This document shows, piece by piece, positions 1 through 10,335 of a stretch of 64,000 nt of DNA (position 1 is its first letter; each line of letters begins with the position of its first letter). Below the pieces are notes generated by a model. It worked only from the letters and a program-made list of their open reading frames with translations. It was not told the origin of the DNA and ran no database searches. The stretch comes from Psilocybe cubensis. Taxonomy: Eukaryota. The DNA is taken from positions 1,612,001-1,676,000 of the forward strand of contig CM039010.1 in the NCBI GenBank assembly GCA_017499595.2, given 5' to 3'. The translations under genes and the position numbers were made by a program.

Positions 1-414
1 TTCATAGTCAGTCAACATCTACTTATATATTTTGGCATCTTTCGTATTCGTTTTCGGGCACTGTCTTTGGGGAATTATGTGGCATATATACATGGACAAT
101 TTACTATATTTGTACTTAATTATCGACATTGTATTTTTGTTATTTTTGGGCAACAGCTTCTTCCAACTTCATGTCAAACATATACACCGAAGAAATCGCC
201 TGTGACTTAGTGTACAAGTGGTTATCCAACAAATCAATCCACCGAGAAACTATGCATTCATATTTTTTCTACAGCAACTGCCCAAATACCTGTTGGGCAA
301 TGCCGAAGCAATGAACGCGTTTCTACCCGTACACGTACAGTAGTCCACTGTTCCGCTTTGAGAGTGCGTGCGTGCGTGTGCGGCTACTCCAGCCGAAGAC
401 ATCAAGTGTCGGAC

Positions 415-2858
415 CTAGCAAGGGTATGCTCCTGAGATTGTGGAATGGGTATCAACGTCAACGGCAGTAGCATTGGACGACGAGGAAAAAAATTTGGTTG
501 GATTACGACGACGCAACCGTCTCACAGGCCAACCTAGTCGTCTTAGGAAGCTTGTGTTGGGGGGATATAGGTCCGTACTCTGGAATGCGATGACGACCCA
601 GACGGTCAACGCCGTAAGAGGTAATGTGAGGGCGGCGTATATGGCAAAGGTAGCGGTTGTTCCTGGGTTGATTTCGCGGACATTCATGCCAAAGATGCCC
701 TGCTTGAAAATGTTATCGAGAGACGTCTGTAGTAATCACAAGCTGCTTACTGCGAGGAATGACGCTGGAAGAAAAAACATAGTCATATACGCAATTTGCT
801 TCATCTGTTTGACCAATTAGCAATCGACTACTTGCAAGGGAGCCTATATGTCTAACTTACAGCTAGATTCGGTAGTGATTAATTGTATGATTCAATTCAC
901 AGAGGGAATAAAACCTTACCGGCACTGTCGCGTATGGTGGCTTCCGTAATTAAGCGGGTGTAGCGCCTATCAACAAGTTCCAAGACATTTTGCAGGCGCC
1001 TTTCTTGCATATACAGTTCGGCTTCAAGGCGCTTGATCTCTACCAAGAGATTCGCACACTCCCGTGCCATGATAGCCTTGCTAAATTCACGTTCCTCTTC
1101 AGATTTACCGTCCATGGCAGGACTGGGCGTATCCCGGATGAAGATAACATGCTTAGCGTAGTCGTCGAGCAGGGATGTGTAGTGCAAGTGGTGCGCCCTT
1201 ATCACGTGAAGCTCATGAGTGAGAGGCATATCCTCCGTGGTTGTGATGACACGAGATTCCTGAGGTATAATGAGAAGGGCTACATCACCATTGCATGACT
1301 TACCAAGGTGCAGATGTGATCGTAGAGATTTTCCAGAGCTTCATCCCAACCATACATTGCATGCCATACAAAAGCTAATAGGACAAAGGTAGAATCTGCA
1401 GATCTCTGGAATATACTTTGCCAGTAAACGTTCTGACCTAGAAGGAGGAACAGAGTCAGGGAACCAATTAAAAAAAAACGAAGTCCAGGTGGTCCACCAA
1501 CCAGCATAACGAATTCGCTCGTGGAGAAATGCTGCCGACGTCGTCGGAAGATTCAACGTAGGATGAAATGATAAGATGGTACTCCCGTTGATGTTTCGGA
1601 TAAGGTGAACAGCGAGTAGGTCTAGCACTAGCAGCCTGTTGTCTGTCATATTTATCGGTTGTCAGATGCCTGTCATATAACGTTTTTCTTGGCTTTCTTA
1701 CTGGAGTGAAGCATTAATGGCGAATGAGGATCAATTCTTTGAGTACCTGAGATATCACAATCAGGAAAAATTGAAGAGAGAAGAAGACAGGAGCAGGGCA
1801 TACCAAGCAAAGTCCCCGATGGCCTGAGAGTATCGGTCGATTTCCCGAACGTCACTGTGTCCTGATTCGACATGGATCGCAAGAAGGTCAAGGTGATGGT
1901 GATATCTAGGCCGTGAGAGGATGAGAAGCTATAGATTCCTCCTTTCTGGATAGGATGGTGAATGCACAAGGGAGAAGATCGACTCACGGTCTCCAATTCC
2001 GGGTTCTATCTCCTCTTGAAACCTCGACGGGATCCAGTTCATAGCGGATGACCAGAAGGAGGGTCCTACATTGTATCTAGTGTCCACAACGTATTCACGT
2101 AAGTACTGGATGACCGAGTTGTAAATCTGATCGCAGAACCACCCACTTTGCGCCAAGCATTTGCAACATCGGTCCTGAGATGTTTTCTATAAAAAGTGCG
2201 CGGACGCGGAGTTTATCGGGTCTCTGGTAAATAGAAGAAAGGCCGTGAGTTACACCAGCTCGGACAATAATCAGAGCGGGATTCATACCAACCTTCTCAT
2301 TGATTAGGCTAGCCCATGTAGCATCTTCGTCGCCATATCTTGATATAATGTGACCGGGATTTGTGAAGAAACCGTCGATGTCGACGTCCACCTGATAGCA
2401 GACGCACGGGCTAGTCCTCGAGTAATTCTTTATGGCACCCATGATCTTGCTTTTTGTTACCTGTCGTTTGGTCCAGTTTGGGAATCGGGACTGTGGGTAG
2501 CCCCTCCAGCATCCGCCACAGTCAACGTGGTCGCACAGTGGCGGAATCGGCGGAAGAGGAGACTCGAGTTGCTCCCGATTGACCTCTGCGAGAAAACGCC
2601 AATTGGATTAGAAAATGTGGGTCTGGGTCACAGACAACAAGTGTGAGCAAGGACTCAGTACTCACCGTCTTCGAGGTCGACCCATGGCCAGGGGGCAGAA
2701 GGAGAGGCATGCCGATGAGAAGGGGCAGGAACTCGGCTTTTGTCGTCCTTTGGGTCGAACCTCAACGACGAGACTCCCGTATGCCCACTTCTCCTCGAGA
2801 GCCCACTCCGTACAGACATGAGGTCGGGAGAGTGGTTGCCACCTGCGAGGTCCATCAT
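415..2858 (-). CDS. CorA-like (2-TM, GMN motif) membrane protein, paralog 1 of tandem array; multi-exon, includes a 2-nt micro-exon
   Basis: Spliced ORF from MMDLAGGN through PWPWVDLED, CDHVDCGGCW and RDSAAMKQIAYMTMFFLPASFLAGIFGMNV to WVVIAFQS...LGWP. The C-terminal two-TM hairpin with GMN is the CorA/Mrs2/Alr1 signature. Exon boundaries match paralogs 2 and 3. Confidence 0.8.
861..862 (-). other. 2-nt micro-exon (CT) in CorA-like paralog 1
   Basis: Minus strand reads GCC G|gtaagg...aatctag|CT|gtaagt...caaacag|ATG AAG CAA. Introns are 863-919 and 805-860. G+CT = Ala restores the RDSAAMKQ frame. Confidence 0.85.
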
Positions 2859-3183
2859 CCTGGTGGGTTAGTTAAGAAGGGGGAAGGTTGATGTGGTAGA
2901 GGGCAAGAGACAAAGTGAACCCGAGACCTATGAGCCGTTGAAGGATCTTCTGGTCGAATTTCGGTGAGAAAAGAAGGATAGGAGAGTGAGCCATCGCGTT
3001 AACCGATGTCCATTAGAGACATCAGCGAAGAAGTTATCGTGCATTTGCTCTAAAATTAGCAACCAATTCTCGACAAGTGATGGCATTCGCACAAATAATC
3101 GCTACGTCACACGCGTTTTGCAAAAATCTAAAACCCCGTAAAGAAAACAGTAGATATAAAACATACATAATCGATAAAACCAT

Positions 3184-5689
3184 TCAGAAGGGGGATACAC
3201 GGTTTCCTTCTGACTTAGCTATACTGAAGTCGGTGAATTCAGACTGAGTGTCCAATTGTTGCATTTGCCGCCGTTCCATCATCCGCTTGATTAAGTAGAC
3301 GGGCCAGCCCAATCGTTTCATAAAGCCTGTGTTCTCCGGGAAGATGTACGTGCTTTGGAACGCGATGATTATCCAAGCAGTCACCAAAGTAAGAGGAAGC
3401 GCAATTTCAATGTAGCGGGGCAAAGTGCCAAGAGACCCGGGATTGATCTCGCTCACGTTCATCCCAAAAACGCCCTAAAGGCACTATTAGTGAACACTAT
3501 CGGCAAGGTGAGAGTGAATCTGCCGCAATCTTACCGCCACAAAAGAAGCAGGCAGGAAGACCATGGTAAGATAAGCGACTTGCTTCATCTTAGCAAAAAC
3601 AACGTAAGTAAGATACACAATGTATCAAATAACCAATGACATACCGCTAAAAGGGAAAGCAACGAAGATGATAAGTTTATGCAAATTACGCGTTCGAGAA
3701 AAGGAAGCTTACCGGCGCTGTCTCGAACCGCAGCTTCCGTCATAACTCTCATGTACCGACTGTCACTTATGTTCACACTACTGAACACCTATGTGTATCA
3801 TGCCCTATAAGAATGTCACGAGCTTAGGGGACGGAAGGGACGGAGACTCACAAGACCCATCACATTTTTCAGTCGTCGTTCCTGCATGTGAAGTTCCGAG
3901 TTGAGGCGTTTTATTTCTGTCAAGAGATTTGCACATTCTCTAGCCATAATTGTCTTGCTGAACTGTTGATCTTCTTCAGACACATTGTCCAGGGCAGGGT
4001 TGTGAGTGTCCCGAATAAAGACGACATGTTTGGCGTAGTCATCAAGAAGTGATGCGTAGTGAAGATGATGAGCCCTTATGACGTGTAGCTCCTGGGTCAG
4101 TGGCATATCCTCTGTCGTAATGACACGAGATTCCTAATGTTCAGGTAAGAAAAACAATAGACCTGTACAGGCGATATAAAGTTAATCATACCAGCGTGCA
4201 GATGTGGTCATATAAATTCTCCAGAGCCTCATCCCAGGCATACATGGCATGCCACACAAAGGTCAAGAGAACAAAGGTAGGGTCGGATGATTGTTGGAAA
4301 ATGCTTTGCCAATACACACTCTGTCCTAAAAATGGGTGGTAAGTTCGTGTACCAGCACAGGCCAAATTAATTCTACAAACCGGCAAAGCGGATACGTTCG
4401 TGTAGAAAAGCGGCCGTGGTCGTAGGAAGATTCAGTGTAGGATGGAATGAGAGGATGGTGCTGCCATTAACATTGCGAATTAGGTGGACTGCTAATAGGT
4501 CCAATACAAGCAATCGATTGTCTGGATGATGGATATCATTTAGAATCACAGTCCAAAAGAAAACAGAGGCACCAGGAGGGCGCTTGACGCACTCGAATGT
4601 AGCATAAGCGGAGAGTGCGGATCAATCTTCTGGCTGCCTAAAATAACACAGTGAGGAAAAAATTATGAAAATAATACATAGGAAACAAACCAAGCAAAGT
4701 TCCCGGTGCTTTCGCCTTGAGTGAATCCGTCGACTTCCCGAATGCGTGGTTGAGTTGTACTGCGTCATGATTGGACATGGATCGCAAAAAGGTAAGTGTG
4801 ATCGTGATATCTGGGTAGTCAAATGTTTATAACCCGCTCCAAAGCAGCCCTTTCTAACTCACGGTCTCCAATGCCAGGTTTTACTTCTTCCTGAAATCGA
4901 GATGGGATCCAGTTTAAGGATGAGGACCAAAAAAACGGTTCAATGTTGTACCTGTGGGAAGCAGATTTCGTCAATGAGTATGAATTCTATCGACCAACAG
5001 CAACCCACTTTGCCCCAAGCATCTGCAACATCGGTCCAGAGATGTTTTCAATGAAAAGAGCACGAACCCTAAGGTTTTTGGGTCTCTGTGATAAGGACAT
5101 AAGGAAGGTATGATAATATTACATGATGCACGAGCCATACCTTCTCAGTGATCAAATGATTCCATGTAGCGTCCTCCTCTCCATGGTTTGCCACTATCGG
5201 ACCAGGATTCGTGAAGAATCCATTTTCATCTACGTCAACCTGGTAGCAAATACAAGGCTTTTCCTTGGAGAACTCCCTGATGGCACCCATGATCTTGCTT
5301 TTTATCACTTGTCGTTCGGTCCAGTTGGGAAAGCGGGATTGGGGGTACCCCCTCCAACATCCTCCACAGTCAACGTGGTTGCAAAGTTCAGGGATAGGTG
5401 GAAGAGGACATTCGAGTTGTTCACGATCAACCTCTACAACGTACACGTAAGTTGATCTGCATCCAAAACGGGGAAAGAGCGGAAGCATACCATCTTCCAA
5501 GTCGACCCAAGGCCAAGGAGCAGACGGAGAAGCATGCCGGTGAGAAGGGTGAGGAACTCGACCCTTGTCGTCCTTGGGATCAAGTCTCAACGAAGAGACG
5601 CCGGAGCGCATACTTCTTCTCGAGATCCCACTTCGTACTGACATCACGTCGGATGGTCGGACTCGAGCAGGAACTGCTAGCATCTCCAT
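3184..5689 (-). CDS. CorA-like (2-TM, GMN motif) membrane protein, paralog 2; apparently intact
   Basis: Spliced ORF from MEMLAVPA through PWPWVDLED, CNHVDCGGCW, YNIEPFFWSS and RDSAAMKQVAYLTMVFLPASFVAGVFGMNV to WIIIAFQS...LGWP. Very similar to paralog 1. Confidence 0.82.
3645..3646 (-). other. 2-nt micro-exon (CG) in CorA-like paralog 2
   Basis: Minus strand reads GCC G|gtaagc...cttttag|CG|gtatgt...gctaag|ATG AAG CAA. Introns are 3647-3712 and 3589-3644. G+CG = Ala. Confidence 0.85.
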
Positions 5690-7532
5690 GGTAGTTCGTT
5701 CGTATCGTCAGTCTTGTGTAGTTCGTTAATGAGGTCGTAAGTCGTTACAAAGGTAGTATGTTGTTTTGAGGATAGGTTGCGCGGTAAGGAGAGGGTGGAC
5801 GTCAATGGCCAACGAGGACGACGTGCTTCTTTGACAGGGTACTTGCATTTATCCTGGCAAGCGCCCTGGCCGGACATGTGAGGTTCTCCGGAGCCACCCT
5901 GAGCGATGATGTGATAAAAATATACTGCCTGATGTTTGTTTTCACGCTTCCCGTCTCGGTTCGTCGTCGAGGATCGCCACGCTTTCTGACTGGTGGGATC
6001 ATGATGACACGCAGTTATTGCAAACTTTCGCAGTGTCTAGTCTTCTATGAGGCTAACAGCTTGCATGAGGCATTGGTGGGGTTCGCGCTGCCGACTGGAT
6101 ATATCTCCTTTGGAGATCATTGTGGCACTAGTAGAAAAGGTTCATCAAACGATTGTGGAGGCGTGGCAAAATAGAGTTTCATGCCGGAAACTTGCCGGTG
6201 TTACCGCGATAGCCACCGGAGTCCAACCGGAGGCACTTTCCTTCCGCCCTGTACCTTGGGGCAAAGACTCTCAGAAACTCGCCCGTGGGTGGAAAGATAA
6301 TTTGGCTTATAACGCGGAAGAAGTATAAATCTTGAGAATATAACTTCAATATTGAAAAACCTGAAAAAAATGGGCATCAATTCATTATGTTCTACATCCC
6401 ACCCCTAACAGGGCAAGTAATTGCGATCTGGGGGAGGCATTTTTGCGTTGATTAACTGCTACTTCAGACTTGCGGAATCCTTCATATTATATATATCCTT
6501 GATAAGATCTGCATCAGCTCCAGTTGGACTGATGCCATTTTCTGTGACACGGCTTTTAAAAACTCACTCAAGTCTGAGGTCGTCTCTGGTCAAATGAGTA
6601 CTGTCACCCTCAACTTGTGGGTTCTTATGACAGAGACTTTAGAAAGCAATTGTGTCAGGGAAAAGATCAAAGTCGGATGGCGTTTCTTATTTTTGAACAC
6701 AGACATGAGGCTTGCACGAGCATGTCGGTTTCAACTCTTCTCACTCCAAAGTAATATAAGTTGATCTATGGATCTACTTTTCTACTAGTTGACGCTGGAT
6801 CACAGACGCTGTTGATTGAATAGCGAGCCAATGATGTAGATTCACTACTTAGGTGTCGTATAGTTGTATAGTCACAACGCTACAAACTGTAGCTGGCCCC
6901 GTTCAGATTTGAAGGCTGCCATAATTATGATGTATCACTAGTTATGCATTGGCTTTATTCTTTGGTCTGTTCGGAACTTTTCATCAATAATAGATGATCA
7001 CTATAATTTGCGTGAAGGGAATTAACAGGTGCCCATGCATAATTACTTTAAGCCTGGCCGTTCTCAAGCAGTCAGGTAAAAATTAGCGCCCATAATTTAA
7101 ACGCCGTCCACACGCGTGATTGATGCACCTCTCCCTGACGATTTCAATCTCCTCGCGAAGATAAACGCGATTGCATGTTGCTCAACTAGACGGAACAGCA
7201 ACAAGTCCGAAAAATTTTACAGTAGCCTAATCGACACGCTCGTGCAGGTAATTTAGTACATGAGGCATACACGAGTCTGATATCAGAGGCAAAAATGCTG
7301 CCGCGAATCAGTGGCTCAGTACCAGGAGGCTACACCATGCTTGTTGACCATAAATTAGTGGCGACATGTGCTAGCGTAATACATAAGGAAAAAAACCTCT
7401 GAAAATGAGAACCTAATCCTACAAAATGTGATGCATGTGTATACAATGTTGAAAGGATATCACGAGAGTCGCCATAGAGATACAAGCCTAAAAGTGAAGT
7501 GCATAATTTGAAGAATTAAATTTCACACCTGA

Positions 7533-10335
7533 TTAAGGCAGCCGTTCCACAGAGCGCATGCCTTCTCTTATCGTCATGTCATTAAATGTCTCCGGTGGTC
7601 TATCCTTCAGCTGCTCCTCCTCTACCTCAATCGGGGACCTTGGGCCTACAGGACCATTCCCCATGTACTGAGAAATCAGTAGCACTGGCCAACCAAGACG
7701 CTTCCAAAATGGCACATGAGCCTGAAATATATACTTGCTCTGGAATGCAATTATAATCCAGACGCTCAGCAGTGTGAAGGGTAAAGCGGTTTCGACCTAG
7801 TGCGCAAGTGTCCCGTTAGTTCCGGGAGCAATCTCCGCGATGTTCATACCGAAAACCGTCTGAATAGCCATCAGTAAAGTATCTTGTTGGATCACAAAAG
7901 TGAATGTACCGCCACGAAGGAAGCCGGGAGAAAGACCATAGTCAAGTACGCTATTTGTTTCATCTATAGACGATTCGGGATCTCAACAACAGTGCGATCC
8001 AGGTAAAATCAACTTACAGCTGCACTGTCCCGCACTGCCGCTTCTGTCATCTTTTGCATTCGCTTACTGTCAATAATATTCACACTGCTGAATACCTGAG
8101 CAAACCATCAGAAAATATTTGCCGTAAGTGCCAAACGGAAACACATACGAGACCCATAACGTTTTTCAGCCTTCGGTCTTGCATGCGCCTATCCTTTTCC
8201 AAACGCTCGATCTCAGTGAGCAGATTTGAGCATTCTCTGTTCATGATGCTGGCATTCTCTTGCCGCTCAGCTTCGGATAATGACTCCAAGGCAGGGTTTT
8301 CTGTATCTCGTATGAAGATGACTGACTTGCGAAAATCGTCAAGGAGTGATGAATAATGTAGAAGGTGCGCCCGGATAACATGTAGCTCCTGGGTAAGCGT
8401 CATCTCAGATGTCACGATAACTTGGCTCTCCTGTCATAAATGTTGGAGTTATTATAGGATTGCGAAGAACGTGGTTGCTATGTTGTACCAGAAAAAACTT
8501 ACAAGTGTGCAGATATGCGAATACAAGTTTTCCAGTGCTTCGTCCCAAGCATAGATTGCGTGCCAAATGAATGTAAGCAGCACGAACGTCGGATCTGGCG
8601 AATTCTGAAAGATGCTTTGCCAATATACACTTTGACCTTGGTTTCAGGTATACCGTTAGTAGCTAGAAGGTGGAAAAGATACGTATACATGCCTGCAAAA
8701 CGAATACGTTCATGGAGAACTGGCGCCGTGGTGGTCGGTAGATCCTTGTTGGCATGGTATGAGATAATTGTACTGCCTTGTTTCCGTCGGATGAGATGGA
8801 CGGAGAGTAAATCAAGGAGGAGGAGGCGCCCGTCTTATTTTTTAAATAAAATAAGATAAATTGATTTTTCGATTATTGTGGCAGAGACATACTAGACTCG
8901 AGCGCTAATGGCGCATGGGTGTCGATCATTTGATGAGCTATACATGGAAACGACAACATCAGGATCTAGTATACGGTTGTATAGCTATGCAGCGAGAAGA
9001 TCTCACCAAGCTGTATACCTGGTTTTCTGCTCGATCTTCCTTCTTGATCAGTTAGGGTAGGAGATGATTCCATTGCATGCTGAGAAGAAATACGGAAATT
9101 GGCATTTTCGTCATTGGCTATTGACCGGACGAATGTCAAAGTTATTGTGATATCTTTAGTTGATATGAGTTACTTGAGAAAGGCGGTGTAAAAGGAAATT
9201 TTCCATACGATCTCCTTCTCCTGGTCGAACTTCTTCCTGATATCGTGAAGGTATCCAATTCAATGAAGACGAAAAAAAGAATGGCTCGATGTTGTATCTT
9301 TAGAACACCATTTTGTCAGTTAAATTTCTCCATATTTGAGGGAGGACACATAACAGGAAACAACAGATGACATTGTGCAAAGTTGCAACTCCAAGTGTAC
9401 GGGTATCAGATTTCAGGGATACTGCGCGGCCAAATACGAGTAGATTTGAATGGTAACTTTGCTCACCTGGTGCCTAGCATTTGGAGAACAGGACCTGAAA
9501 GGTTTTCGATAAATAGACATCTTACTCGATTATCGTCTGGAATCTATCGCACAAAGGAGAAATTTAGCATAGCTTGCCAATTCAGGTTGCCAGAAGTGTT
9601 AAAAATAGATGACTTATGCCCGGGCCATATGTTTCCGATGAGGCAGGAAAATGCATTGCACAAAATGCTCACATTCGATGTTATCAGCGCCTCCCAAGTT
9701 TTACTCAACCGATCTTCATCGGATATTATCTTTCCAGGCTCTGGAACTTTGAATAGACCATTGTGGTCGACGTCAACCAGGTGGATAATACAGGGGACAT
9801 CATTTCGGTAGTCAGTGATGGCCTTGTTAATTTGGCTCTTCCTGACTTGTGACGGTGTCCAGTTTGGATATAACGACTGTGGATAGAGATCCCAGCAACC
9901 TTCGCATGTCTTGTGGTTACATGGCGGTGGCACAGGGGGTAGCGGTGATTCCAGTTGTGTGGGGTCTACGTCTAGAAAATAAACAAAAATGCCGTAAAAT
10001 ATACCTAGGTAGATATATATGTAACGCTATTATAAAGCGATATGCATACCGTCCTGAATATCTACCCATGGCCAGGGAGCCGATGGCGCTGCATGTCGAT
10101 GGGACGGGGGATGGATTTTACTAGAATCTTCCTTTCGCTTTTTGCGTCGTAAACGAAGGCTGTATACCGACATTAATTGGGTATCCCCGAGATTGATTCT
10201 ATGAGAACTAGTTTCGGAGAATTGGCTAATCGAGCCCGTATGTAGTCAGTACTAAAGCGAAGTAGGTGGTCGAGAAAGAGTTGTGCGCTGAGTGTGAGTG
10301 TGAGCTTCAGGCAGGTGGCACGTATTTTGGGGCAT
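7533..10335 (-). pseudogene. CorA-like paralog 3 with one in-frame TAG between TM1 and TM2 (recent pseudogene, null allele, recoded stop or sequence error)
   Basis: Exons are homologous to paralogs 1 and 2 (PWPWVDIQD, CNHKTCEGCW, YNIEPFFFSS, RDSAAMKQ, FGMNI). TAG at 7797-7799 aligns with a Tyr in both other paralogs. Start is uncertain: ATG 10335 via an intron, or ATG 10173. Confidence 0.65.

Follow-up and report, generated by a model that had tools for sequence, protein, structure and literature searches.

In the Psilocybe cubensis genome, a 64-kb stretch of contig CM039010.1 (hereafter the window) carries three CorA-like genes, P1, P2 and P3, all on the minus strand; a tblastn search across the window found these three family members only. 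P1 and P2 are tandem genes in which the second Ala codon of the motif RDSAAMKQ, just before the first transmembrane helix (TM1), is divided by two ordinary short U2-type introns lying 2 nt apart. The two nucleotides between the introns, a C followed by a synonymous base, form a constitutive 2-nt exon, a reading to which we assign a probability of about 0.9. Both introns are removed and the two nucleotides are kept in RNA, and the reading frame is lost without them. This layout is old and common to a whole clade of related genes.

The two-nucleotide exons and their transcripts

Contigs from four sequencing runs were aligned to window positions 300-9700: X1 and X2, taken as RNA, and X3 and X4, which are among three DNA-like runs that were found. 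The parts of P1 and P2 around the split codon are listed below; the membrane helices TM1 and TM2 were assigned by eye from hydrophobic runs.

415..2858, minus strand: P1 coding span, CorA-like, from start to stop codon; the public model P0004 was anchored in the window by its start and C-terminal peptides
920..1259, minus strand: P1 exon ending in RDSA plus G (920), the first base of the split Ala codon; from translation, with X1 and X2 contig pieces covering 920-1258
863..919, minus strand: P1 upstream intron (I1), 57 nt, GTAAGG..TCTAG, phase 1; from the sequence, and absent from the X1 and X2 contigs
861..862, minus strand: P1 two-nucleotide exon CT, bases 2 and 3 of GCT (Ala); from the letters of the X1 and X2 contigs, and the sole AG-CT-GT in the 115-nt interval
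805..860, minus strand: P1 downstream intron (I2), 56 nt, GTAAGT..AACAG, phase 0; from the sequence and the contigs
751..804, minus strand: P1 exon with the first half of TM1, beginning MKQ (ATG AAG CAA at 804); from the sequence
700..750, minus strand: P1 intron after the first TM1 exon, GT..AG; from the sequence, and spliced out in the RNA contigs
3184..5689, minus strand: P2 coding span, CorA-like, 13 exons including the micro-exon; from the open spliced frame and a Pfam search with the public model P0005
3713..3788, minus strand: P2 exon ending in RDSA plus G (3713); from the sequence
3647..3712, minus strand: P2 upstream intron (I1), 66 nt, GTAAGC..TTTAG, phase 1; removed in the RNA contigs and kept in the public model P0005
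3645..3646, minus strand: P2 two-nucleotide exon CG, bases 2 and 3 of GCG (Ala); from the X1 and X2 joint, and the sole AG-CG-GT in the 124-nt interval
3589..3644, minus strand: P2 downstream intron (I2), 56 nt, GTATGT..CTAAG, phase 0; from the sequence and the contigs
3535..3588, minus strand: P2 exon with the first half of TM1, ATG at 3588; from the sequence

A first-pass annotation of this DNA had described both micro-exons and the corresponding unsplit site of P3. Its coordinates and arithmetic all hold on the minus strand, and the four introns flanking the 2-nt exons run GT..AG. The two junctions that it predicted are matched by the X1 and X2 contigs at 804/920 and 3589/3713. At the P1 joint (804 to 920), the letters AG on the plus strand, corresponding to CT on the gene strand, stand between the two sides in X1 (depth 69.7) and X2 (depth 19.6). 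At the P2 joint (3589 to 3713; depth 69.7 in X1 and 92.2 in X2), a G stands between the sides and a C is aligned onto 3589. That C belongs to the micro-exon, which therefore reads CG; the aligner had matched it to the intron's last base, which is the same letter. The X1 and X2 contigs lack 14 listed introns (CT..AC on the plus strand, hence GT..AG on the minus strand) and show zero depth over the intergenic segment 6266-7207; we thus take them to be spliced transcripts. Contigs of X3 and X4 run colinear with the window, with no joints across these genes. In both genes the included form is the only one seen in the contigs of the two RNA-like runs (2/2).

Translation shows why the two nucleotides are needed. 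In P1, P2 and P3 the TM1 exon is followed by G[IV]FGMNV, the GMN of which closes the first of two C-terminal membrane helices. P2 has 12 introns, all GT..AG and 10 of them placed from RNA joints. Only with CG included does its frame run open from 5689 to a stop codon at 3186-3184, with GVFGMN after a hydrophobic helix. Skipping either micro-exon shifts the frame before TM1/GMN, as the first-pass annotation had proposed for P1; the stop then comes 83 codons on, in the last exon, in P1, and 40 codons past the Ala in P2. Retention of the P1 upstream intron stays in frame but runs into a stop, also as proposed, and retention of the P2 upstream intron gives an open, in-frame reading. With canonical flanks, their letters in the transcript, a need for them in the frame, and conservation in orthologs (see below), these elements belong to the ultra-short (<=3 nt) internal exons.

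Could the two letters instead stem from an assembly or alignment error, or P1 and P2 be frame-shifted pseudogenes? The neighbour P3 has an in-frame stop, and a degenerate relative (locus L021, see below) shows that members of this family decay. However, both frames are open with the 2 nt, and the letters match the sole AG-CN-GT of each interval in two runs and two genes. In addition, 25 more instances in 23 independent contigs keep the canonical signals and intact downstream exons. We therefore consider artefact or decay highly improbable.

How such an exon could be spliced follows from the way short introns are recognized. Introns of 50-65 nt in these fungi would be recognized as units, their ends being paired across the intron (intron definition), so that no minimum length should apply to an exon. 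A 3′ splice site and a 5′ splice site 2 nt apart could presumably not be occupied simultaneously, so that the two introns would be removed in succession. A first splicing event would fuse the 2 nt to a normal exon, after which the second intron would have normal flanks. Since G is the last base of both the upstream exon and the upstream intron, the downstream donor context GCN|GT (positions -3 to -1) would be unchanged by the first splice; therefore, either order of removal appears feasible.

Several points weigh against this reading of P1 and P2. X1 and X2 come from a single study and are labelled RNA by guess; that they are RNA is deduced from their lack of introns. Because contigs drop rare variants, skipped or retained isoforms may exist unseen. 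Beyond the tabulated joints, the contig alignment contains 17 further ones. For P2, the joint could formally also be read as a 1-nt exon with a non-canonical acceptor. Finally, the splice order and the steric argument are products of reasoning rather than of observation.

One X1 contig (record 1, 4678 nt) spans both P2 and P1 (window 300-6125), which may reflect overlapping or read-through transcripts, or joining by the assembler.

The split codon in related genes

Relatives were drawn from metagenomes as the best 80 of 121 confirmed loci (142 pattern matches). Several loci are near-duplicates, such that 22 distinct intron pairs occur among the 25 first matches. The site was assigned to a class in 80/80 loci, one class holding those that are not classifiable.

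23/80 loci, 25 instances: micro-exon, G|GT..AG|CN|GT..AG|ATG; a second tandem copy in L010 and L011
1/80 loci: AG-CC-GT deleted in a degenerate gene; L021
4/80 loci: upstream intron only, phase 1; L014, L022, L040, L045
3/80 loci: downstream intron only, phase 0; L003, L026, L028
19/80 loci: single intron 9 nt further on, after MKQ; for example L049:3316-3381 and L035:3364-3425
21/80 loci: no intron at the site; L001, L002, L008 and L050 among them
9/80 loci: not classifiable; 5 end before the site and 4 belong to a subfamily without the segment

The first-pass annotation had set a test in advance, namely that AG-CN-GT should stand at this site in orthologs keeping both introns. The motif is present there in all 23 micro-exon loci, with the synonymous base alone varying, and the finding thus withstood this attempt at refutation. 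Across 27 instances, P1 and P2 included, the micro-exon reads CT in 16, CC in 10 and CG in 1; the C is invariant and the third base is synonymous. All donors are GT and all acceptors AG, with upstream introns of 49-66 nt and downstream introns of 50-64 nt. Inspection by eye, without alignment, revealed no resemblance between paired introns of the kind that a duplication would leave.

These data also bear on the suggestion of the first-pass annotation that the micro-exon is a regulated cassette, whose inclusion yields a membrane-anchored protein and whose skipping, or retention of an intron, yields in some conditions a truncated product or one targeted to nonsense-mediated decay (NMD). A micro-exon switch of this kind has been reported in Trichoderma, according to the accessible part of PMC11121469. 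In the present genes, skipping shifts the frame just before TM1, and a retained P2 upstream intron would be read through in frame without a stop. Nevertheless, the suggestion found no support, and we regard it as quite unlikely. The contigs of both RNA-like runs show the included form only, minor forms being invisible to contigs. The upstream intron is open and in frame in 3/22 distinct intron pairs, about the chance rate, and the downstream intron in 0/22. The stop that follows skipping in P1 sits in the last exon, a poor position for junction-dependent NMD. Moreover, a constitutive coding exon would be expected to keep its C fixed while the third base drifts, and this is the pattern observed. 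An isoform conserved through retention of the upstream intron was considered separately and rejected, given the same 3/22 pairs.

A second alternative is that the two introns and the 2 nt make up a single nested unit, either a stwintron or a recursive-splicing ratchet point with a signal rebuilt after the first excision. Recursive splicing through zero-length exons (AG|GT ratchet points) is known from Drosophila and vertebrates, where it acts in very long introns and leaves nothing in the mRNA. It shares with P1 and P2 an acceptor followed almost at once by a donor and a stepwise removal, which the layout of P1 and P2 would likewise require; the introns here are about 55 nt long, however, and 2 coding nt are kept. 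In a [D1,2] stwintron, an internal intron splits the donor of an external one (PMC12403724, accessible part). Stwintrons resemble the P1 and P2 arrangement in having two U2 introns in immediate contact that are removed consecutively, but their outer splice signal is interrupted and no exon letters remain (same source). In P1 and P2, by contrast, each intron has its own complete donor and acceptor in the unspliced sequence and the 2 nt stay in the mRNA, so that membership among stwintrons was rejected. Each intron also occurs alone in relatives, the upstream one in L014, L022, L040 and L045 and the downstream one in P3 and L003. A nested unit is thus scarcely credible, and two complete introns flanking a constitutive exon remain the preferred reading. 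A literature search combining stwintron and micro-exon found nothing.

Several further features of the relatives were observed. In L021 (1616-1733), a close relative of the micro-exon genes, AG-CC-GT and a few more letters are gone and the downstream exons are truncated; here the loss of the micro-exon accompanies gene decay. The 19 loci with a phase-0 intron after MKQ, and none in the Ala codon, form a more distant clade and bring to three the intron positions of this family within 12 nt of coding sequence. In L010 (at 229) and L011 (at 224), a second tandem family member lies upstream and also has a CT micro-exon, so that tandem arrays occur in relatives too. L001, L002, L008 and L050 look like complementary DNA (cDNA), being single full-length open reading frames.

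History of the two introns

Two trees were computed, a quick one of 81 rows and a careful one of 50 rows; the root was not inferred. In the quick tree, all micro-exon rows fall in one 38-row clade, with a value of 95 in the Shimodaira-Hasegawa-like approximate likelihood ratio test (SH-aLRT). In the careful tree, the micro-exon ingroup has a support of 98/96. Within it, a subclade supported at 100/97 nests L014 and L022, which have the upstream intron only, and L003, which has the downstream intron only, among micro-exon genes. Given this nesting, loss of one intron is the economical reading for all three loci. Forcing the micro-exon rows together without L014 and L022 was rejected by the approximately unbiased (AU) test (log-likelihood difference 39.7, p-AU 0.0017), for which the groups were chosen after the tree had been inspected. 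In L003 the neighbouring intron upstream is missing as well; losing adjacent introns together is a typical mark of loss via a cDNA copy.

Two results stand on the other side of the balance. The same constraint test for L003 gave an identical constrained tree and an identical figure; as L003 is the weakly supported sister of L014/L022, the two tests are one result and not independent. Furthermore, a micro-exon clade excluding P3, L026 and L028 was not rejected (p-AU 0.169). In P3, the upstream intron may have been lost or may never have been present.

The upstream position is also occupied outside the ingroup, in L040 and L045, both of which are long branches, whereas the downstream position is not. 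Because the upstream position alone occurs there, the distribution hints that the upstream intron is the older and that the downstream one was added later, 2 nt from it; with an unrooted tree, this serves as a lead only. In the preferred reading, relatives with the upstream intron only (phase 1) or the downstream intron only (phase 0) arose from the two-intron state through loss of one intron.

This course of events leads to a tentative model, to which we give slightly less than even odds. The 2-nt exon may be an intermediate by which the position and phase of an intron shift by 2 nt without sliding of splice sites: a second intron is gained 2 nt away, and either of the two is later lost. The family contains the corresponding stages, namely both introns, the upstream one only (L014, L022), the downstream one only (L003; P3) and neither, besides the third position 9 nt on. 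Literature searches on intron sliding and micro-exons found no paper linking micro-exons with apparent intron sliding. If the model is true and general, pairs of this sort would have left behind some of the cases now taken for intron sliding, as well as much of the faulty annotation found at out-of-phase junctions in mushroom genomes. In any case, the intron states that the family shows at this one codon form a natural series, which is usable for work on the gain and loss of adjacent introns and on the splice order of abutting introns.

P1 itself differs from its neighbours at another site. It lacks (921-1000, minus strand) the intron after ..GLV that is found in P2 (3789-3851) and in P3, together with about 7 adjacent codons; this change is an imprecise intron loss or a deletion. 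The branch of P1 in the careful tree has a length of 0.44, against 0.13 for P2.

Known ultra-short exons, public gene models and the protein family

Two-nucleotide exons are a known kind, as dozens have already been counted in Coprinopsis cinerea. According to the accessible part of PMC12230235, the long-read annotation of this fungus holds 89 gene models with exons of <=3 nt, comprising 13 one-nt, 57 two-nt (in 50 genes) and 27 three-nt exons, and omitting them gives premature stops in most such genes. The rarity that the first-pass annotation implied for such exons is thus overstated for this group of fungi. Both species are Agaricomycetes with short introns and transcript-supported exons; the C. 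cinerea data are genome-wide counts, whereas the P. cubensis exon has been traced through a gene family with its loss derivatives. Similarly, Fusarium CYP621A has a 1-nt exon supported by public RNA reads (PMC12940212, accessible part). Like those of P1 and P2, it is a tiny exon inside a conserved motif, flanked by canonical introns, conserved in orthologs and missed by annotation; unlike them, it is 1 nt rather than 2 nt long and belongs to ascomycete P450 genes, and the accessible parts of that report do not mention single-intron relatives. The same source cites exons of 2-5 nt in Arabidopsis, Drosophila and humans, as well as the single-nucleotide exon of Arabidopsis APC11. Micro-exons of 2-10 codons are described for Phanerochaete P450 genes (PMC1184071, accessible part). 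Therefore, knowledge of two-nt exons as a kind is unchanged by P1 and P2; the novelty lies in the family concerned, in how deeply the exon is conserved and in the range of loss derivatives. Among the papers listed by a loosely defined literature search, none names Psilocybe cubensis, a result too broad to show whether micro-exons of this species have been treated elsewhere.

The micro-exon sits in a conserved membrane-protein motif, and the public models of P1 and P2 are both wrong exactly at TM1, in line with the first-pass claim that gene predictors miss such exons. A P. cubensis protein in UniRef (P0004) matches the P1 exon 921-1259 at 100% identity, and P2 matches another database model of this species (P0005). 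P0004 joins the G at 920 to a cryptic acceptor AG within the following exon, by which 13 TM1 residues are lost. In P0005 the 66-nt upstream intron is left in and adds 22 residues. At this site, the 23 longer database relatives read Ala-Ala in 12 cases, Ala-Gly in 4 and Ala-Glu in 2, with read-through inserts in 2 (one of them P0005), deletions in 2 (one of them P0004) and a scrambled sequence in 1. One more model, of an Asterophora protein, translates straight through an intron that opens with G|GT and closes with ..AG|CN. Of the 23 relatives, 11 may be mis-annotated here, a fault shown for P0004 and P0005 and suspected for the other nine. Models with Gly, Glu, inserts or deletions at the site come from, among others, Galerina, Pholiota, Phlegmacium, Gymnopilus, Asterophora and Panaeolus. 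Six models have the second Ala replaced by Gly or Glu (P0006, P0007, P0016, P0017, P0022 and P0027); the nearest metagenome locus is at most 80% identical to any of them, and they stay suspected errors. Such errors at TM1 affect family or structure analyses built on these models.

Judged by their sequence, P1 and P2 encode CorA-like (GMN-motif) membrane proteins, putative Mg2+ transporters. In a Pfam search against CorA (PF01544), P0005 scored 38.3 bits, above the cut-off of 27, and P0004, the model without half of TM1, scored 18.8 bits, below it. Single exons (P0001-P0003) matched no Pfam family at E <= 0.01. Among the database matches, no protein of this subfamily carries a functional name. 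With the CorA/Mrs2/Alr1 Mg2+ channels (PF01544) these mushroom proteins share a C-terminal two-helix membrane part with the GMN motif; they differ in a long N-terminal part with a conserved His/Cys-rich stretch outside Pfam families.

The third gene, P3, has the codon unsplit and bears a stop of its own.

7964..8017, minus strand: P3 single intron, 54 nt, phase 0, after unsplit GCA GCT; at the I2 position, with no I1 and with ATG at 7963; from the sequence
7797..7799, minus strand: P3 in-frame TAG between TM1/GMN and TM2; aligned relatives have Tyr there

No differing letter at the TAG was found in the X2 RNA contig (7367-7859) or in the X3 and X4 DNA contigs. The reading frame beyond it is still open and conserved. 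P3 looks like a recent pseudogene, or a gene for a truncated product that is still transcribed.

The N-terminal stretch mentioned above, for which no Pfam family was found, is rich in His, Pro, Trp and Cys. It follows the pattern SHRHA.PSAPWPWVD and then C..C.W.GYPQS.FPNWT, and is present in all family members (P0004-P0034). Its places in the window, from protein comparison, are the following.

5400-5689, minus strand: conserved N-terminal His/Pro/Trp/Cys stretch of P2
2600-2858, minus strand: conserved N-terminal His/Pro/Trp/Cys stretch of P1

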